Of a stretch of 53,474 nt of DNA, positions 1 through 43,371 are shown one piece after another; the stretch's first letter is position 1, and every line of letters starts with the position of its first letter. This stretch comes from Escherichia coli. GTDB lineage: Bacteria; Pseudomonadota; Gammaproteobacteria; Enterobacterales; Enterobacteriaceae. The stretch lies in assembly GCA_017639185.1 (NCBI GenBank), contig GCA_017639185.1_4892.1. One strand, given 5' to 3'. The position numbers and the translations under genes were made by a program. The notes below the pieces were generated by a model that saw nothing but the letters and a program-made list of their open reading frames with translations, searched no databases and had not been told where the DNA came from.

Positions 1-901
1 GAATAAGTGCCAATAGTGCGTACGAAGTTATTGCAACCATTAACGGGAAGTTATCCCCGATAACGTAGATAAGTCGTTTTATATTTTCAATTGTATTGAA
101 TACAATTTCATCAAACTTTTTAAATGCTGCAGTAAGTGTGGTATCGTTAAGCACTGCAGTAAGTGACTTAACCATATTTATCGCGCCTTTGGTTACCTCG
201 TCCCATACTCGGGTCTGGGTAATCTTAGAGCGAGCAGCATACCAAATTGTACTCAGGTTAGTTAACTGCGCTTTGAGTGTCTGCGACACTTCGTGGGCAA
301 TTGGTTTTAAACGTTCGGCTTCTTGTTTGAGCGCGCTAGTCAGTATGTCGGCAGTGATTTGCTTCTGCCGCATCATATCCTGAAGCTCGCCAAGCTTCTT
401 ACCAGTGTAGCGGGACAATGCGCCCCAGATGTCAACACCGGCGTTAATGAATTGGTTCTTTTCCTGGCCCTGCAATGAACCCATCGCAGTTGCCTGGCCA
501 TACGCAACAATGGTACGCGCCAAATCACCGCCTGTTGCAGCAGTGATTGTTTTGAGCATTTGTAGTGAACCGTTTAACGGGTCAACGCCATACGCTTTAA
601 GTTTAGTAAAGCCGTCTAGTGCCTCTTGAAATGGTGTACCCATTTGCAAAGACATATCCATCAGCGTTTTCCACGTCGATTCGACGTCGTAGCCGAAGCC
701 TTTAATCTTGGCGGCGAGTACGTCAGCCTCTAACGCAGGCGCAAACATCCTACCGAGCGCACCAGCGGCACGCTCAGCAAGATTGATTACATCGCCGAGG
801 GTAATCACAAAACGGCGGGACAGCTGGTCGAAGAGGTCAAAGCCTGCGCTATCGGCTTTACTCTCAAGCGTTACCAGAAAGCTATCGATTATGGTCGCCA
901 T
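1..901 (-). CDS. tail tape measure protein, N-terminal part (runs off window start; joins 52714..53474 if circular)
   Basis: Hand translation from ATG at 899-901 gives MATIIDSFLVTLESK... with a TMP-type segment LKAYGVDPLNGSLQMLKTITAATGGDLARTIVAYGQATAMGSLQGQEKNQFINAGVD. GAGGA RBS upstream. Open to position 1. Not in the ORF track because its stop lies outside the window. Confidence 0.75.
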   Translation of the reverse strand, partial: MATIIDSFLVTLESKADSAGFDLFDQLSRRFVITLGDVINLAERAAGALGRMFAPALEADVLAAKIKGFGYDVESTWKTLMDMSLQMGTPFQEALDGFTKLKAYGVDPLNGSLQMLKTITAATGGDLARTIVAYGQATAMGSLQGQEKNQFINAGVDIWGALSRYTGKKLGELQDMMRQKQITADILTSALKQEAERLKPIAHEVSQTLKAQLTNLSTIWYAARSKITQTRVWDEVTKGAINMVKSLTAVLNDTTLTAAFKKFDEIVFNTIENIKRLIYVIGDNFPLMVAITSYALLALI

Positions 902-1492
902 GGATTTCCTCTAACTCGGCATAGTCCAGAATAGCAATATGCAGGTCGCACAAATCACACAAGCTGTAAGACGACTTTAATTCTGCAAGGGTCACATGAC
1001 CCTTGAGAATAGGAAGCCAAATGAACCAGTCAGTTTCTTGCGTCCCTGACTGTTGCTTGCGTTTTATTTCGTCAAGGGCGTGGCTAGACCCGCTAGACCT
1101 GACAGGCCATTCCCTTTGAAAAAATCCGCGAACTGATATACCAATCCCTCCTTAAGCACACCGAAGATGTGGCTACGATATGCGTTGAAGTGTTGGTCTT
1201 TACAGTCAGACAGCTTACGCGGTTTGCCATCAACTACAACAACAGTATTGCGGAAGATTAATTCCTCAATAGCTGTCATCTCGTCAGAACCTGCGTTCTC
1301 CAGAACAGCGTCCAACAGGACCAGCATTGCTTTCTTACCGTCCACTTTGCCGTCTTTACCCACAATGTCAGCGTTGCCAATGCCTTTGAACAGCTTACCT
1401 GCTTTTTTCAGGACTGTCCAGGCTTGCAGCGCGTTTGCGAGTGTCATGTTGTACGTTACGTCGTCGATGTCAAATGATTTGGGCTCAGTCAT
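882..1492 (-). CDS. tail assembly chaperone, candidate -1 frameshift-extended form (GT-like)
   Basis: The -1 frame is open from the slippery site T_TTT_TTC (plus 1118..1124) through the gap between chaperone stop (1064) and tape measure start (901), ending at TAG 882..884. Hand-translated extension: FFQREWPVRSSGSSHALDEIKRKQQSGTQETDWFIWLPILKGHVTLAELKSSYSLCDLCDLHIAILDYAELEEIHGDHNR. Confidence 0.4.
1064..1492 (-). CDS. tail assembly chaperone (G-like)
   Basis: 142-aa ORF between the tube-like gene and the tape measure gene, the conserved position of tail assembly chaperones. Carries a slippery heptamer near its 3' end. Confidence 0.55.
   Translation of the reverse strand: MTEPKSFDIDDVTYNMTLANALQAWTVLKKAGKLFKGIGNADIVGKDGKVDGKKAMLVLLDAVLENAGSDEMTAIEELIFRNTVVVVDGKPRKLSDCKDQHFNAYRSHIFGVLKEGLVYQFADFFKGNGLSGLAGLATPLTK
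1118..1124 (-). promoter_or_regulatory. candidate -1 ribosomal slippery heptamer (U UUU UUC)
   Basis: Minus-strand GAT TTT TTC in the chaperone zero frame matches X_XXY_YYZ. Sits 18 codons before the chaperone stop. Confidence 0.4.
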
Positions 1493-19518: not shown

Positions 19519-19755
19519 AATGTTACCCACAAGTAGGAGACCGTGAGGCCGTTTGATGATTCACATTAATGATAGCGCGTGGAGGAGAGAAAGTACACCA
19601 CTTTTTAGTGAGTGTCTACACAATTTCCGAAAAATATAAAAAAATTTTAGAGGGGCTTCACTTATTATTGTGTTAAGCAAAAGGTTAGCTCCTGCCGTAT
19701 TACTCTGATGATGATTGGTCCTGATAAGGAGAAAATACCAAAAAATAAAAAAAAT

Positions 19756-19828
19756 TCCGCTGGCTCCTGGCGGGTAGCACCCTTGCGAAATTACCCCCCG
19801 CCGCACCTATTTCGATTGAAATGATTAC
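19756..19828 (+). repeat. control-region repeat unit A1
   Basis: About 70 bp, roughly 70% identical by eye to the unit at 19933..20003. Shared blocks CGGCTCCT, GCACCC, ACCCCCGCCG, ATTT.GATTGA, ATTAC. Confidence 0.6.
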
Positions 19829-19932
19829 TATGGTAACTATTGCGATTGATACAATTACCGTGTGAACTACTTCGGCCGTTATAGTACAAAGCGTCTATAA
19901 TTCAGATTGAAATTATATTTTTATAAATAATT

Positions 19933-20003
19933 TCGCCGGCTCCTTTAAGTGGCACCCCTACGTTACTATAACCCCCGCCGACCATTTTGGATTGAGTAAT
20001 TAC
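19933..20003 (+). repeat. control-region repeat unit A2
   Basis: Second copy of the unit at 19756..19828. Confidence 0.6.
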
Positions 20004-20149
20004 ATGCGAAACTATATCAATTGCATATGAGAACCACTCTCAATCGCAAGTGATTATCATTTCTAAAAACTTGCATAAACTTGCAATTCTTTTATGTACA
20101 ATCAATAGCGATTGGTCTATTATATATTTATTGAATGTGATGACTGATT

Positions 20150-20166
20150 GACCAGTCTAACTGGTC
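20150..20166. promoter_or_regulatory. perfect palindrome (candidate operator)
   Basis: GACCAGT-CTA-ACTGGTC, 7-bp arms. Overlaps a TTGACC -35-like hexamer. Confidence 0.45.
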
Positions 20167-20312
20167 TGGAGGATATTGGTATGGTTTAGATTTGGTAGGT
20201 AGTACTTAACCAGTCAACAGGTACATCTGGTAGATGTCAATGGTACCTTTTGCTCTTTAACAATTTGGTAACATGTTTCTTGTTGATAGTAACACTAGTA
20301 ATAGTTTCAACC

Positions 20313-20338
20313 AGTGACTATTGGTATCAATAGTCACT
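20313..20338. promoter_or_regulatory. perfect palindrome (candidate operator upstream of first early gene)
   Basis: AGTGACTATTG-GTAT-CAATAGTCACT, 11-bp arms with 4-bp spacer, about 30 bp upstream of the ATG at 20367. Confidence 0.5.
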
Positions 20339-20366
20339 CCTGGAAACTAATACAAAGGTAACTATT

Positions 20367-20669
20367 ATGAAACTGAACAATATCACGTCTGACGTAGAAA
20401 TGCAAGTCACAATCATGTCAATAGTTGAAGACATGCGCCAAGTGTGTATTGAAAGCAACATCTGTTATGATAACGTACAGCAATTATTTGTTGAACTTAT
20501 TACAGGTGCTGAAATAACTGATAATAAACTCTTGATTGACTTGGTCCGCGAAAGACTGATCTTAATTGGCGAAAACTTTGCGGCAGATGGCTTTAATGAA
20601 ATTTATCATGATGACTTCAGGCATTTGTTGAAAGTCGTACAAGCTGTTGAAAACGCAAGCGCGAAGTGA
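20367..20669 (+). CDS. early hypothetical protein
   Basis: 100-aa ORF, first gene right of the control region. AAAGG RBS. Confidence 0.5.
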   Translation: MKLNNITSDVEMQVTIMSIVEDMRQVCIESNICYDNVQQLFVELITGAEITDNKLLIDLVRERLILIGENFAADGFNEIYHDDFRHLLKVVQAVENASAK

Positions 20670-20762
20670 TTTCAATCATGACAACTTGACAAAAGTTGTC
20701 ATGTTTGGACTTACTTGCCAAGGATTGGCGCTTATCAAAATTCTATCAACGAGGATACATCA

Positions 20763-21332
20763 ATGACAACTATCAACTACGTTTACCTGACTTCCGCTTT
20801 TTCTGTCGAGTCTGTGAAATCTGGTCTGACTACTGAAAGTCTTGGCACTATTGTAGTGCAGATGGATAGTCTTCAGTACTTTGCCAATAACCAGATCATT
20901 AAGATGATTAAGTCGCTTAATGATGAAAGTTCTGTAAGTGTCAAAGACTCTAAAGAAGTGCTGGTGAAGGCTTTGTTTGACGAGCTGAACCAACTGGAAG
21001 TTGAAGAAGTCAAAGTTGCGACAACACGAGCATCCGCTGGTGGCTCTCGCAAATCGTCATCTGGTCCGTCAACTAAAGATACCTGCTATCTGGTGTTCAA
21101 AGATTACAACTTGATGGATAAAGAAGATTCCAAATTGGCGCTCGCTGATGCGATGAAAGCTTGCGGAATGGAAGCGGATGATATTAGAGCAAAACGTGTT
21201 ATCCAGTCATATATGTCATACTACCGGAACGATGTAAAATCTGGTAAAGTGACTGATGGCAAATCAGTAACTGGCAAAAAACCTGATACTGAAGTAAAAC
21301 CTGAAACTGAAGCACAAGAAACTGAAGAGTAA
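20763..21332 (+). CDS. early hypothetical protein with acidic/Lys-rich tail
   Basis: Start at ATG 20763 (GAGGA RBS) rather than track start 20715. C-terminus KPDTEVKPETEAQETEE. Confidence 0.5.
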   Translation: MTTINYVYLTSAFSVESVKSGLTTESLGTIVVQMDSLQYFANNQIIKMIKSLNDESSVSVKDSKEVLVKALFDELNQLEVEEVKVATTRASAGGSRKSSSGPSTKDTCYLVFKDYNLMDKEDSKLALADAMKACGMEADDIRAKRVIQSYMSYYRNDVKSGKVTDGKSVTGKKPDTEVKPETEAQETEE

Positions 21333-21398
21333 TTTTTGAGATGGCGCTCAAGTAGTGCCATCAATGAAAGTTATTCACAATCAACAGGAGAGAGAAAC

Positions 21399-21557
21399 AT
21401 GCTTAAAATTAAACTGACCAAAGACCAGGCGATGGCCTTGCGTGATATGATGATTGAGTTAGAGAAGATGGGCACTTTTTCTGATAGTTCTCACACTTCA
21501 ACTCTTGATTATATTGTTGAAGCCATTGACGACAAATTTTCAGGTTCTGAGGAGTAA
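21399..21557 (+). CDS. small early protein
   Basis: 52-aa ORF. ATG preceded by the 22-bp initiation block ATCAACAGGAGAGAGAAACATG. Confidence 0.45.
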   Translation: MLKIKLTKDQAMALRDMMIELEKMGTFSDSSHTSTLDYIVEAIDDKFSGSEE

Positions 21558-21820: not shown

Positions 21821-21990
21821 AAGACCTGAAATTGACTGAAGACGAATTGGCGCACCTGATTGAATTACTGGAATCAAATGCCCAAATTGTGAAAGATCAA
21901 ATATCTGATGCTGTTGGTGGTTCCAAAGAGTTTGATAACTTGATGGAAGATTTCCGGCTGACAATTCAGATCGCAACAAAGTTAGCATAG
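21817..21990 (+). CDS. small early protein
   Basis: ATG overlaps the upstream stop (ATGA at 21817..21820). 57 aa. Confidence 0.45.
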   Translation: MKDLKLTEDELAHLIELLESNAQIVKDQISDAVGGSKEFDNLMEDFRLTIQIATKLA

Positions 21991-22058
21991 TTTCAACAAT
22001 GAACTGTCCAAAGTTGTGATAGTTCATTTTTGAAATTATATCAACAGGAGAGAGAAAC

Positions 22059-22448
22059 ATGTACAGTGCAAAATGCGAAGATGGTATCTATACCGTATAT
22101 TGTGACGGTAAAGTACTCAAAGTTCTGCCAAACGCCTTCAAGTTTGAGCAATTCATGACGGTGTTGTGGGAGAGCCAGGAGATTAGTCGGGAAGACATTA
22201 TTGACCTGATGAATCCCTTGATGGGGTACCATCCAATTCGTGAGTTTGACAGTCGTCCAACTTGGTACAAGCTGGAAGATGGCAAAGTCTGGGAACAAGC
22301 CTGGGACAGATTTGAAGGTGGTTACGGCCACTGGACGGTTTACGTCGATGGTGATGATGCCCAACGCTACTGGGAAGCAATCAAAAATTGTGCGACCCGG
22401 GACGTGACTGATCCGGAATACGACGAGTCAAAATTTGAGGTCAAGTGA
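22059..22448 (+). CDS. acidic early protein
   Basis: 129 aa. Same 22-bp initiation block as the gene at 21399. Confidence 0.5.
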   Translation: MYSAKCEDGIYTVYCDGKVLKVLPNAFKFEQFMTVLWESQEISREDIIDLMNPLMGYHPIREFDSRPTWYKLEDGKVWEQAWDRFEGGYGHWTVYVDGDDAQRYWEAIKNCATRDVTDPEYDESKFEVK

Positions 22449-22648
22449 TGCCACTAGTCAAATTTACGACGGTAGACCTTGCCCATGGATTGCCACCCAA
22501 AGCTGAGCAAAAATTCTTGACAGTTGAGGAGTGGCATATCTGGTGCCAGTCAGCTCTAAAATCTGGGGCTAAACGCACTAATGGTGGAAAAGTGTTTACT
22601 CGCTTCAATAAAGAGTGTATAATAGTAGTTCAGGTAATGATGGAGTGA
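22448..22648 (+). CDS. small early protein
   Basis: ATG at 22448 overlaps the upstream stop (TGATG). Confidence 0.4.
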   Translation: MPLVKFTTVDLAHGLPPKAEQKFLTVEEWHIWCQSALKSGAKRTNGGKVFTRFNKECIIVVQVMME

Positions 22649-22897
22649 TATTAATCAAGTCCTGGTACTGACAGGGCTTGATTAAAAGCTGGTAATTGAT
22701 TCAATCCTGAGGATTTGCCAAAAGTCCTCATGATTGAATTAACCCACAAGTGGAGGCCTTATGGTCCGATGTAAACATGTTGTTGAGTATTCTGTTGTGA
22801 ATCCTGCATATGCTGAAGGTCGGGCTATGAGGAAGCTGGTTGGGATCTTTCTGATAATTCTTATGGTATTGGCTTATGTTTTCTAAGGATGATTTAT

Positions 22898-23065
22898 ATG
22901 ACATTGCTCGACGTGTTAATCAACGCGATTTATCTGGTGTTACCGATCTTTTTTCTGCCGGCACTTCTGACGATGCGGTATTACGCGAAGCGGAGCGGCG
23001 CCAAGCAGAAATACAAAGAACTGCAAGCTGCTGGAATTATCAACCCCCGAAAACTGTACCGTTAA
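22898..23065 (+). CDS. small predicted membrane protein (alternative to track ORF 22876..23121)
   Basis: Hand translation MTLLDVLINAIYLVLPIFFLPALLTMRYYAKRSGAKQKYKELQAAGIINPRKLYR. AAGGA RBS 8 nt upstream. One hydrophobic helix. Confidence 0.35.
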   Translation: MTLLDVLINAIYLVLPIFFLPALLTMRYYAKRSGAKQKYKELQAAGIINPRKLYR

Positions 23066-23120
23066 CCTGGGTTGACATGACAATTTGGTTATTGAATAAA
23101 CTTGGAATAAGGAGCAAATA

Positions 23121-23300
23121 ATGTTTAAATTCTTACAACGTAACCCGGTCAAAGGTGGCATGCAATACTGGGTGGATATTCATGGCGGTGAGTATATGAT
23201 GATCGTCCGCGATGGTAAACCTGCTGAAAGCTCTTTCGCTAAAGGTTGCAACGTTTACAACCAACTGTTTGAGTTCCTGGTTGAAGGCGATTACTTGTGA
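23121..23300 (+). CDS. small early protein (59 aa, below track threshold)
   Basis: ATG at 23121 preceded by AAGGAG. Translation MFKFLQRNPVKGGMQYWVDIHGGEYMMIVRDGKPAESSFAKGCNVYNQLFEFLVEGDYL. Confidence 0.5.
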   Translation: MFKFLQRNPVKGGMQYWVDIHGGEYMMIVRDGKPAESSFAKGCNVYNQLFEFLVEGDYL

Positions 23301-40408: not shown

Positions 40409-41404
40409 ATGAGCAAGTTTAACTATGACACCAAACAAATACAGATTGCCGTTCAACAAGCTCGTCCCATCAAGTATACTGATAGCGGTCTTATGGGCAA
40501 AATATGGATTGCAAACGAAACAATCCATTCATACTACAAGAACGTATTACTACGAGCGCCATGTAAAGGATTCCCAGACCTGCAAGTGGATGCTGAATCA
40601 TTTCGTAAGGCCGTTAATGCGGCAAGAACTGAACAGATTACTTTTAACATTACAGCCGCTGGAAACCTCACAGTCACAGCAGGCGTACTTAAAACAAGAA
40701 TGCAAGCGCTTAATGAACCAATACCGCCGCTTGCTACAGTTAACAACTGGTATTCAGCGCATGGCGAATTACTCCCGGTGCTAACTGCCCTGGCCAAATG
40801 GGTACCTAACGAAGCACCGCAGGTATGGGCAACATCTTTACTTTTGCGCGATGGTTATGCTTACGCCACTAACGGCAAGTATATGATACGCGAGAAGTTG
40901 AACGTAGATTTTGAATTTGAATGTGCCATAGCCAAGCCAATGCTTGAGGCCTTGGTTAAGCTGAAGATGGAACCCACAAGCGTAGGATATGCCCGCGGTC
41001 AGATGTTCTTCGGCTTTGCGGATGGCGTACAGATGGATGCTCCGGTACTCGCAGCCAAATGGCCAGACGTATCGAAGTTCTTCAATATGGAAATGGATAT
41101 GCAGGCCATCACTCCTGAATTCCTGGAAGTTATGGACCAGCTTACTGGGTATGACGAAGGTCAAGCCATTCTGGAGATAACAGGCGAGTCAACAGCAAAA
41201 GCAGATTTACCAGACAAGATTATTCCGAAGATGTCCGTCGACATTAAGTTCCAGTCGACTAAGTTTAGTAAACCGTTCAACTGTGTTATTAGTCAGATGA
41301 GTAAACTGGCTAAAGGCATGGAAAGAATAGGGCTTGGTAGTCAGGCGCTCAAAATGGAAAACTCAACTCGTACAGTTGTAATTGCGTATGTGAGAGGGGA
41401 CTGA
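40409..41404 (+). CDS. hypothetical protein preceding DNA polymerase
   Basis: 331-aa ORF. Stop overlaps the polymerase start. Confidence 0.45.
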   Translation: MSKFNYDTKQIQIAVQQARPIKYTDSGLMGKIWIANETIHSYYKNVLLRAPCKGFPDLQVDAESFRKAVNAARTEQITFNITAAGNLTVTAGVLKTRMQALNEPIPPLATVNNWYSAHGELLPVLTALAKWVPNEAPQVWATSLLLRDGYAYATNGKYMIREKLNVDFEFECAIAKPMLEALVKLKMEPTSVGYARGQMFFGFADGVQMDAPVLAAKWPDVSKFFNMEMDMQAITPEFLEVMDQLTGYDEGQAILEITGESTAKADLPDKIIPKMSVDIKFQSTKFSKPFNCVISQMSKLAKGMERIGLGSQALKMENSTRTVVIAYVRGD

Positions 41405-43371
41405 TGAGCTTTTTATTCGATAGCTTTGAAGGTGCAAAGAATGTTAAACCTATCAACCGTCCTATACCATACGTCAGGGATACTGGATGGCGGCCGCGCG
41501 CGCATTACCCGGATTTGTCTTCTGCGAAGATTATCGGTCTTGACTGTGAAACATACGACCCAGGGATGGATACAAATGGTAGTGGTTGGGCCAGGAGGGA
41601 AGGTCATATCGTTGGAGTTAGTATCGCTACGGACAATGGCTTCAAGGCTTACTACCCAATCAGACACGAGCTCGGCGAAGAGGATAACCTTCCAGCTGAG
41701 GAAGTACTTGGTTGGCTTCGGCTCGAACTCTCGCGACCTAACCAAGTTAAAGTCGGTGCTAACATCACATATGACTTGGGCTGGCTTGCAGCAGAAGGCG
41801 TGGAAGTCAAAGGATTGTGCATGGATGTACAATTCGCGGAAGCATTACTCGACCCAGGCGCGCGTGTTGCACTTGAAGGACTTGGACGAAAGTATGTAGG
41901 CGAAGGTAAAGACTCAGCTGAGATGTACCAATGGATTTCAGATGCTTATGGTTGTAAGCCAACAGGTGAAGCCAGAAAGTACATCTACAAAACACCTCCT
42001 CGTCTTGTGGGTTACTACGCTGAATCTGACGCCGACTTACCAATACACATTATCAAAGCCCAGTGGCCTTTGTTAAGTCGCTGGTGTTTAACAGACGTAT
42101 TCTATATGGAGTGCAAGCTCATTCCATTAATGCTTAAGATGCGTTTTGCAGGTGTGCGTGTTGACCTTGACAAAGCCAAAGAGGCGGATGATACGCTTAG
42201 CGCTGAAATAAGGAAAATGCACCAGCAGATTAAAGACCAGATTGGCTTTAACATTAACGTTAACTCCGGTCCTGATTTAGCACTTGCATTTGACCATTTA
42301 GGTCTGGAGTACTTCAAAACAGCGGCGGGTAATCCGTCGTTTACAGCGGACTTCTTAGCAGGCTTGCACCATCCGTTTGCGGAACTGGTGTCTGAGATTA
42401 AGTCTTATGAAAAAATCCAGTCCACGTTTATTCGTGGCTATATATTGGGGATGAATACAAATGGCTTCCTTCACGGTCAATTCCATCAAATGCGCGGTGA
42501 TGACGGTGGAACCGTTAGTGGTCGGTTTAGCTCATCTGACCCTAATCTACAGAATATACCGTCTCGACACAAAATACTGGGACCACTCCTTCGTGCTTGT
42601 TTCGTACCGGATGTCGGACACCGATGGGGATCAGCAGACTACGCCCAAATTGAATATCGATTCATGGCGCATTTTGCAGTCGGCCCGGGCGCTGATGAGT
42701 TACGAGCAATTTTCGCGGCTAACCCGGAAGCAGATTACCACAATGTTATGGTCGATATTATCAAGGAAGCCTCAGGTCACGTTATAGAGCGTAAACCGGC
42801 TAAGACCATCAACTTTGGTTTGTTGTACGGCATGATGCTTAATGCTCTTGCCCGTAAGTTAGCAATGACACCTGAAGAAGCAGAACCTGTTCTGAAGGCG
42901 TACCATCAGGGTGCACCATTCATTGGTGCTACCATGAAGCATTATGAAGATTTATGTTATAGCCAGGGGTATGTAGAAACCTTTATGGGCCGGAAAACGT
43001 GGTTCAACAAATGGGTCCCAAAACGTGGTGGATTCGGGAAGATGCCTTTGCCATTTGAAGAAGCACGTCAGGAGTATGGCCCAAACATTAAACTGGCAGA
43101 CACCCACAAAGCAATCAACCGAGTGCTGCAAGGGTCGTCAGCAGACCAGATGAAGTCTGCAATGCTGAAAGGGTATGAAGACGGTTACTTCGACGTGATT
43201 GGCGTGCCTCGCCTGACGGTACACGATGAGCTTAACTTCTCTCTACCAACTGGTAAGCAAGCAGAAGATGGATTCTACGATTTCGTACGGGTCATGGAAA
43301 CTGTGCTACCGCTTCGTGTACCTGTTCTTACTGATGCTAAGATAGAAAGTAACTGGGCAGAGGCGCACTAA
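41404..43371 (+). CDS. family A DNA polymerase with 3'-5' exonuclease domain
   Basis: Exo I IIGLDCETY. Pol motif A DYAQIEYRFMAHF, motif B RKPAKTINFGLLYGM, motif C VHDEL. Confidence 0.85.
   Translation: MSFLFDSFEGAKNVKPINRPIPYVRDTGWRPRAHYPDLSSAKIIGLDCETYDPGMDTNGSGWARREGHIVGVSIATDNGFKAYYPIRHELGEEDNLPAEEVLGWLRLELSRPNQVKVGANITYDLGWLAAEGVEVKGLCMDVQFAEALLDPGARVALEGLGRKYVGEGKDSAEMYQWISDAYGCKPTGEARKYIYKTPPRLVGYYAESDADLPIHIIKAQWPLLSRWCLTDVFYMECKLIPLMLKMRFAGVRVDLDKAKEADDTLSAEIRKMHQQIKDQIGFNINVNSGPDLALAFDHLGLEYFKTAAGNPSFTADFLAGLHHPFAELVSEIKSYEKIQSTFIRGYILGMNTNGFLHGQFHQMRGDDGGTVSGRFSSSDPNLQNIPSRHKILGPLLRACFVPDVGHRWGSADYAQIEYRFMAHFAVGPGADELRAIFAANPEADYHNVMVDIIKEASGHVIERKPAKTINFGLLYGMMLNALARKLAMTPEEAEPVLKAYHQGAPFIGATMKHYEDLCYSQGYVETFMGRKTWFNKWVPKRGGFGKMPLPFEEARQEYGPNIKLADTHKAINRVLQGSSADQMKSAMLKGYEDGYFDVIGVPRLTVHDELNFSLPTGKQAEDGFYDFVRVMETVLPLRVPVLTDAKIESNWAEAH

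Follow-up and report, generated by a model that had tools for sequence, protein, structure and literature searches.

The 53.5-kb stretch of DNA analysed here in its whole length (Escherichia coli assembly GCA_017639185.1, contig GCA_017639185.1_4892.1; hereafter the window) is that of a Rosemountvirus-type myophage. One locus in its plus-strand operon of small genes without assigned function contains three short open reading frames (ORFs), here called A, B and C. C lies wholly inside B in the +1 frame, and the start of B overlaps the end of A. A preliminary description had treated this interval as one of ambiguous coding in which two small hydrophobic ORFs, A and C, competed with B. Comparison with related sequences instead makes it probable that the interval is the start of a translationally linked early-gene cassette with three real small genes, and that B and C are a dual-coding nested pair with both frames under purifying selection. 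On this comparative evidence, B/C is an example, not recognised before, of the embedded same-strand overlapping genes known from phages. The ORFs, the Shine-Dalgarno (SD) sequences of A and C and two inverted repeats upstream of A were all found where the preliminary description had placed them (Table 1).

Evidence for dual coding of B and C

The locus was gathered from annotated phages, IMG/VR, metagenomes and Logan/ENA assemblies. This collection (numbered with the prefix L) contains 26 distinct sequences with a gap-free B/C overlap and four more divergent ones (L034-L037), giving 30 distinct relatives that span Rosemountvirus, Loughboroughvirus, the fHy-Eco03 group, Erwinia phage SOI901 and metagenomic contigs. 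Over the 3 kb around the locus, identity to Salmonella phage triss is 98%, and 61 phage records match. A more sensitive search matched 62 records (46 Salmonella, 11 Escherichia, 2 Klebsiella, 1 Erwinia, 1 nominal Listeria and 1 named only 'Phage'), and in tblastn B and C each reached at least 80% coverage in the same 62 phage records.

Both frames are kept intact throughout this sample. B is open at full length in all 30 distinct relatives and in all 62 phage records. Conservation is not confined to the frame that begins at 22876, since C is open in 30 of 30 relatives as well, with an ATG in 29 of them and a TTG in L036. When all six frames of the overlap were checked, only B and C were open in 26 of 26 sequences; the other four were open in 0, 0, 0 and 4. 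The overlap is free of indels across the 26 distinct sequences, and in L034, with B at 44% identity, indels come only in multiples of three and both frames are kept. The openness of each frame was also assessed by resampling, in which one protein was held fixed and synonymous codons were redrawn from the phage's own usage. With the C protein fixed, B stays open with a probability of about 0.01 per sequence. Under a single-frame null simulated on the tree, about 14 of 26 leaves lost the other frame, and the probability that all leaves remain open was below 0.002 in either direction.

The rates of change at third codon positions point in the same direction. In the overlap, C positions 1/2/3 correspond to B positions 2/3/1, and parsimony gave 1.15, 1.27 and 1.85 steps/site at C positions 1, 2 and 3. 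Third positions in single-coding controls accumulated 3.78 steps/site in the tail of B beyond the C stop codon, 2.91 in gene A and 3.33 in g66, the gene upstream. The rate ratio of overlap to tail was 0.33 for B third positions (confidence interval (CI) 0.19-0.59, p = 0.0004) and 0.49 for C third positions against the B tail (CI 0.31-0.82, p = 0.008), and overlap third positions were slower than those of A and g66 (p = 1e-5 to 1e-11). The roughly threefold slowing of B third positions in the overlap is the signature of a second frame that reads them as second codon positions. Pairwise divergence at fourfold sites was 0.098 for B in the overlap, 0.236 for C in the overlap, 0.371 for the B tail and 0.649 for g66. 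Codon-usage log-odds in the overlap were +6.1 for C, +3.4 for B and -48.6 for the third frame, and off-frames in the long genes of this phage scored -34+/-16 and -65+/-20. The comparison of frames in relatives by codon usage and conservation, which the preliminary description had proposed, thus found B and C coding-like and the third frame not.

The start signals of C are preserved at sites where B would allow change. In 25 of 26 sequences the AGGA core of the C SD does not change; SE4/L007 has it shifted by 2 nt (GAGGAG, 7-nt spacing). The B residues over this SD vary between K and E and between D and E; the synonymous AAA/GAA codons are never used, and B codon 4 is (A/G)AG throughout. At B codon 8 the amino acid varies among Y, N and H, yet the codon reads xAT in every case with a G after it, and the C ATG is thereby preserved. 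In L036 the TTG that replaces this ATG stands 7 nt after GAGGAG, a spacing compatible with the SD. An alternative ATG at 22889 would give a C of 58 aa, but because it is limited to the closest relatives and directly abuts the SD, 22898 is taken as the conserved start.

The predicted products are also consistent with two genes. C consists of an N-terminal transmembrane (TM) helix, AIYLVLPIFFLPALLT, a basic C-terminal half and a conserved INPRKLY end; the helix motif AIYL.LP..FLPALLT is invariant and is followed by the basic segment. The annotation of phage S144 gives C a TM helix with N-out/C-in topology, and AlphaFold2 modelled C as a single long helix (predicted local distance difference test (pLDDT) 81). 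C matches phrog_28081 over residues 1-55 of 55 (E = 4.8e-42), and A matches phrog_10979 (E = 1.3e-23, A residues 3-41 against 1-39 of 39), so the two small hydrophobic ORFs are conserved genes. These families, labelled 'unknown' and 'membrane protein, moron', respectively, are without known function, and the overlap with B is recorded in neither; the same PHROGs profile search returned no family for B. A is open with its SD in 23 of 26 relatives (the KHVVEY motif search missed three) and in L034-L037, and its S144 homologue has an annotated TM helix. C is more conserved than B, with a mean column identity of 87% vs 81% and an identity of at least 99% in 40 records vs 7.

The B family is restricted to this phage group (two clusters among 1.84 billion representatives in a profile search), and B is 68% identical to Gp05 of phage fHy-Eco03 over 81 aa, gap-free and with the same neighbours. 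The 18 codons of the B-only tail, which include the peptide TVPLTWVDMTIWLLNK, showed 1.88, 0.67 and 3.78 steps/site at B positions 1, 2 and 3 (position 3 > 2, p = 0.0003), and changes counted on the tree gave a ratio of nonsynonymous to synonymous rates (dN/dS) of about 0.29. This pattern indicates that the tail is read in frame B.

Public annotation reflects the ambiguity that the preliminary description had noticed. Among 17 annotated related records, nine call C (168 nt; birk, triss, S144, KE25, vB_SE1_KM, yarpen, BP63, KE24 and vB_SenM-1), eight call B (full length in SPLA12, AEV23, ZCSE2, SE13, 8-19 and fHy-Eco03, truncated in SE4 and extended in SOI901) and none calls both. Gene callers likewise give B or C, never both, on metagenomic contigs. 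Gene callers cannot report nested genes, and as a result either the 81-aa protein or the membrane peptide is absent from all annotations examined. The ambiguity is therefore real, but the comparative evidence supports coding by both ORFs rather than competition between them. Two complementary arguments bear on this: ORF integrity argues very strongly for B and modestly for C, synonymous sites very strongly for C and moderately for B.

Several points weigh against a dual-coding pair. With the B protein fixed, C stays open with a probability of about 0.35 per sequence. Since an open C frame alone is weak evidence once B is fixed, the case for C is built on suppressed change at B synonymous sites, on the C start signals and on features of the protein. 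Within the overlap, dNN/dNS was 0.61 (selection on C) and dNN/dSN was 0.75 (selection on B, weaker; p approximately 0.07). These OLGenie-style ratios are in the expected direction but weak for B, and more weight was therefore placed on the flanking single-coding rates; selection on B at the amino-acid level within the overlap is moderately supported by these comparisons. The single-coding control beside the overlap is short (18 codons), the same 243 nt also served to build the trees, parsimony counts too few changes, and the sequences, being related, are not independent. The AlphaFold2 model of B has four loosely packed helices with a pLDDT of 72 and a predicted template modelling score (pTM) of 0.28. 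Neither B nor C has a homologue of known function in profile and structure searches. B might also be kept open for the sake of its tail and, partly or mainly, so that its first 60 codons relay ribosomes. In the Rosemountvirus, Loughboroughvirus and fHy-Eco03 papers searched, neither ribosome profiling nor proteomics of early infection was found for B or C, and the proteomics of fHy-Eco03 covered virions only (PMC8145870).

Table 1. Features of the A-B/C locus and its surroundings, with positions in the window.
Feature	Position	Strand	Remarks
g66, upstream 66-aa gene, phrog_35966	22448..22648	+	single-coding control; third codon positions 3.33 parsimony steps/site
Sigma-70 promoter-like site (TTTACT-17 nt-TATAAT, 10/12), putative	22595..22623	+	inside g66 3' end
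Hairpin 1, gene-end hairpin of g66	22651-22664/22672-22685	+	14-nt arms, 93% complementary, 7-nt loop
12-nt remnant GCTGGTAATTGA	22688..22699	+	last three sense codons and stop of a 99-aa gene present in SE13-type relatives
Hairpin 2, two-part	22696-22716/22722-22742	+	21-nt arms, 86%; immediately upstream of A SD
Gene A SD, GGAGG	22752-22756	+	upstream GGAGG conserved in all lineages
Gene A, 41-aa tail-anchored membrane peptide (predicted)	22761..22886	+	KHVVEY...NP.Y motif, C-terminal TM helix
Gene B, 81 aa, predicted helical soluble protein	22876..23121	+	without SD; the ORF listed by program in the preliminary description
Gene C SD, AAGGA (GAGGAG in most relatives)	22885-22889	+	inside B codons 4-5, 8 nt before C ATG
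Gene C, 55-aa membrane peptide (predicted)	22898..23065	+	wholly inside B, +1 frame
B-only tail (TWVDMTIWLLNKLGIRSK)	23066..23118	+	contains SD of the next gene (AGGAG, 23110-23114)
59-aa gene next in the coupled chain, phrog_34345	23121..23300	+	follows B

Proposed translational coupling and alternative readings of the locus

The weak initiation context of B, which the preliminary description had noted, is correct in so far as the sequence upstream of the B ATG (...tggtattggctt ATG) has no AGGAG-like motif. The geometry, however, is that expected of a translationally coupled gene. The B ATG lies 8 nt before the A stop codon (11-nt overlap, ATGTTTTCTAA in the window), a distance of 8-14 nt in every lineage, and the weak context would be explained by the coupling of B to A. 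At its other end, the B stop codon overlaps the ATG of the next gene in the window (TAATG) and abuts or overlaps the following ATG in all lineages, even where the following gene differs. In the mechanism that we propose, B would be initiated by ribosomes that terminate on A (termination-reinitiation) and would hand ribosomes to the next gene through the stop/ATG junction. C would be initiated independently from its own SD embedded in B and would insert in the inner membrane with N-out/C-in topology. The products would act on the host early in infection. The annotated 3.7-kb terminal repeat of fHy-Eco03 (MW602648.1 1-3699) takes in the entire A-B/C cassette; each genome would therefore carry the cassette in two copies, and it would be first to enter the cell. 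The repeat is absent from other Rosemountvirus records as deposited.

Two simpler readings would keep only one of the nested frames. That only C, with A, is real and B a by-product would agree with the choice made by metagenome gene callers and about half of the annotators, and with the SD of C, its higher conservation, its dominance of codon phase in the overlap and the lack of a PHROG family for B. The C stop codon is 55 nt before the next gene, and these 55 nt would then be a non-coding spacer that carries the SD of that gene. This spacer nevertheless shows the B-frame periodicity and the low dN/dS given above and in frame B would encode the tail TWVD...IRSK. Moreover, B is open in 30 of 30 relatives against a chance of about 1% per sequence, the B ATG, its overlap with the A stop and the junction of the B stop with the next ATG are conserved in all lineages, and C synonymous sites change at about half the control rate. 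We consider this reading unlikely.

The opposite reading, in which only B, with A, is real and C is an accidental open frame within it, appears improbable to us. B suits the stop/start-coupled chain of the operon, it is the choice of the other half of the annotators, C would be open by chance in about 35% of cases once the B protein is fixed, and the published toxicity result was read through the 81-aa protein (PMC8145870). Against this, the behaviour of B third positions (1.27 steps/site in the overlap vs 3.78 in its own tail, p = 0.0004) is unlike that of a single-coding gene. The SD core and ATG of C are invariant where B has synonymous or variable sites; C is better conserved than B as a protein, and its sequence is a textbook TM helix with a positive-inside tail. 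The one relative without the C ATG, L036, has a TTG at an SD-compatible spacing.

It is also conceivable, though very unlikely, that a programmed -1 frameshift near the C end joins the TM part of C to the B tail, with the upstream B frame untranslated from its own ATG. C is +1 relative to B, and hence a -1 slip leads from C into B; the block TTATCAACCCCCGAAAACTGTACC near the C end (~23040-23062) is nearly invariant, and L034, the relative that diverges most, carries the canonical heptamer CCCAAAG in the correct phase. However, an X XXY YYZ heptamer in frame C is absent in 26 of 27 sequences, L034 being the only one to have it, and frameshifting was rejected as a general mechanism for this reason. 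The invariant block is explained by the overlapping conserved peptides INPRKLY (C) and YQPPKTVP (B), and such a frameshift would not need the B ATG and the 60 open upstream codons of B, which are kept against a chance of about 1%. Finally, a single coding frame combined with an RNA or DNA element (structure or binding site) could cause extra nucleotide conservation, since suppression of synonymous sites does not by itself reveal what the constraint is, conserved hairpins are numerous in the operon and a weak hairpin is present at 22912-22927; this is extremely unlikely because it leaves unexplained a stop-free second frame of 55-60 codons in 30 lineages, indels that are in-frame only, a conserved SD and start and coding-like codon usage in both frames, and because no Rfam family matches and the suppression extends across the whole 165-nt overlap rather than being confined to a local motif.

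On the minus strand, the antisense ORFs 22728..22904 and 22940..23161 were rejected since they are not conserved among relatives. KE24 and vB_SenM-1 (L038 and L039, 365-643) have an annotated minus-strand coding sequence (CDS) over the C end and the next gene. To judge from the corresponding antisense frames, which are not conserved, it is probably an over-call.

Toxicity of the homologous locus and likeness to known systems

The dual-coding reading of B and C bears on a published result. In a screen of phage fHy-Eco03 genes in E. coli, g05, the homologue of B, was the most toxic of 32 hypothetical genes tested, with ratios of 0.003 by next-generation sequencing (NGS) and 0.16 by plating and with growth arrested on arabinose induction from pBAD30, and the A homologue g06 was non-toxic (PMC8145870). 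Gp05 is a direct homologue of B in the same position, between g06 and the next gene. The authors credited the 81-aa protein and speculated on RecG mimicry from a Phyre2 hit (Viruses 2021, PMC8145870). The g05 primers amplify the DNA from the B ATG through the B stop, 246 bp (PMC8145870), and the insert therefore also carries the GAGGAG, the ATG and the complete ORF of C. In the paper the locus counts as a single gene, and the nested C, with its own SD in the insert, is not considered; the toxicity data concern the fHy-Eco03 clone only.

The toxicity of g05 would thus stem from the homologous B/C locus, and may be due to C, B or both. We place at roughly even odds that C is responsible, alone or in part. 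As a more specific and more doubtful proposal, the toxicity would come wholly or partly from the nested C within a two-output switch, in which B is made only when A is translated, C is made from its own SD, and ribosome traffic in frame B tunes the early amount of C. The toxin-like role that the preliminary description had guessed for the small membrane peptides accordingly has indirect support from the homologous fHy-Eco03 DNA as far as B/C is concerned, and is at odds with the non-toxic homologue of A. For superinfection exclusion, its other suggestion, nothing specific was found in favour.

Database searches gave little further indication of function. Searches of Pfam, NCBIfam and PDB profiles with A, B and C gave no match, the PDB profile search did not recover the RecG similarity of B, and Foldseek comparisons with BFVD and PDB returned nothing at E < 1. 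A search for relatives with only one of B and C, meant to show which frame came first, gave the two clusters of the profile search, both from this phage group, and in tblastn the same 62 phages for B and for C; scans of IMG/VR and metagenomes added few loci.

Embedded genes of other phages offer partial parallels. The lysis protein E of phiX174, an ssDNA microvirus, is embedded in the +1 frame of the scaffolding gene D. Like B/C, the D/E pair has a short protein with an N-terminal TM segment and conserved helix prolines, nested +1 in the gene of a soluble protein, and the segment is toxic to E. coli when expressed. Unlike D/E, the B/C pair belongs to a phage with a normal holin-endolysin system, and there is no homology; the likeness is an analogy only. 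The Rz/Rz1 spanins of lambda resemble B/C in that a small gene is embedded in the +1 frame of a larger gene on the same strand of a dsDNA phage and has a membrane-associated product. However, B has no N-terminal TM or hydrophobic segment, C has neither a lipobox nor a cysteine, and there is no sequence similarity. The lysis genes of S144 (holin, endolysin and embedded spanins) are ORF34-37, elsewhere in its genome (PMC7432712). A spanin reading of B/C was rejected because the TM and lipobox features are lacking and the lysis cassette of S144 lies elsewhere.

Gene-end hairpins, the remaining window and implications

The interval upstream of A had been described as hairpin-rich. Two hairpins are indeed present, but they are not specific to this locus: they are members of a family of gene-end hairpins and adjoin each other here through a deletion. 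Folded as RNA, the interval with both hairpins gave -53 kcal/mol (z = -5.5 vs shuffles); folded singly, hairpin 1 gave z = -6.7 and hairpin 2 gave z = -7.4. Hairpin 2 has an outer A/T-rich stem, a small internal loop, an inner stem of 9-10 bp and a 5-nt loop. A counterpart is found upstream of the A SD in every lineage examined, with at least two unrelated stem sequences and one architecture: a preceding stop codon, an A/T-rich outer stem, an internal loop (often CAA/TGA), an inner stem of 9-13 bp and a loop of 4-7 nt. Hairpins of this family, each beginning at the stop codon of a gene, occur at every non-overlapping junction of the plus-strand operon (20664-20716, 21327-21376, 21987-22039 and 22651-22685, z = -5.2 to -6.7, plus 22696-22742), and genes joined by stop/start overlap are without them. 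Each hairpin is followed by a near-identical SD region, for example CAACAGGAGAGAGAAACATG at 21380-21399 and 22040-22059. Architecture and position, more than sequence, define the family, and a search of the window for further copies with the motif AACAA...TGATT gave hits not above chance.

The reading of hairpins 1 and 2 as intrinsic terminators was rejected, since the terminator scan was negative at both and no T-run follows them (AAAGCTGG and ACCCACAAG come next). In the same scan no hairpin of the family had a following T-run, and none matches Rfam. Our preferred guess is that these hairpins would serve in RNA-end stabilisation or processing.

Hairpins 1 and 2 are adjacent in the window because an intervening gene cassette has been deleted. 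SE13-type and Loughboroughvirus relatives have a gene of 300-306 nt between the g66 hairpin and hairpin 2. In SE13 (L012) the CDS 806..1105 ends ...GCTGGTAAT TGA with hairpin 2 directly after it, and the end of this gene survives in the window as the 12-nt remnant (Table 1). In both SE13 and S144 an equivalent hairpin follows g66 and a further gene comes after it. Hairpin 1 is present in the window and yarpen, half-deleted in SPLA12/8-19 and absent in triss, birk and BP63, in which the g66 TGA is fused directly to hairpin 2. Four deletion/insertion states are thus found at the g66-A junction among relatives. In the fHy-Eco03/KE25 group another gene of about 190 aa lies between g66 and A (L011 265-837, L009 264-836, L010 254-826 and metagenomic loci), and in fHy-Eco03 it is annotated as virion-associated by LC-MS/MS (tandem mass spectrometry coupled to liquid chromatography). 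The different genes found in this slot indicate that the junction accepts unrelated cassettes of 0, 300 or 573 nt.

The closest described analogue of this arrangement is the promoter-early stem-loops (PeSLs) of T4-type phages, which are likewise repeated stem-loops bounding small early genes and to which gene gain and loss between close relatives maps exactly (PMC2839356, PMC4122927). A PeSL combines a strong sigma-70 promoter with a terminator stem-loop and bounds small non-essential early genes (PMC2839356, PMC4122927). In contrast, the unit described here is a stop codon plus a two-part hairpin, without a T-run and without a consistent adjacent promoter, in an unrelated phage lineage. Promoter-like sites near the hairpins are not consistently paired with them: one is upstream of hairpin 1 and one, seen by eye, is downstream of the g66 hairpin of fHy-Eco03. 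The putative site in the window is conserved in seven close relatives, yet the sequence is also coding; the AEV23 annotation has a predicted promoter at the equivalent position.

Some further observations were made in the window and its relatives. An ATG-initiated ORF of 152 aa (41441-41899, plus strand) lies in another frame of the 655-aa DNA polymerase ORF 41404..43371, with the same size and offset as fHy-Eco03 g53.1, a gene whose product was detected with high confidence by virion mass spectrometry (PMC8145870); it may represent a further nested gene of this genome. Between divergent gene blocks, about 840 nt (19530-20366) have no long ORF and are AT-rich with A-runs. They contain two similar GC-rich segments (~19750-19810 and ~19935-19990, by eye), short direct repeats (19809-19825/19900-19916) and, at 20286-20365, a long imperfect hairpin. 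This region could be regulatory, an origin or a genome-end region. Among the matching phage records, PP583539.1 ('Listeria phage 220426122051') is 96% identical to the Salmonella/E. coli phage group over the locus, and its unexpected host label is possibly a contaminant or a mislabel.

A homologue of the B/C locus gave the strongest result in a published screen for phage toxic proteins as antibacterial leads. If C is the toxic agent, the proposed RecG target and any follow-up interaction work would concern the wrong protein. Phages of Rosemountvirus and Loughboroughvirus are under development for the biocontrol of Salmonella and E. coli, and their host-toxic early genes are therefore worth knowing. 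The family of gene-end hairpins provides a handle on the gain and loss of small early-gene cassettes in this phage group. If both frames are coding, as we consider probable, the B/C pair would be a clean, small and well-sampled dual-coding case from a dsDNA phage in which to study how one sequence serves two proteins.

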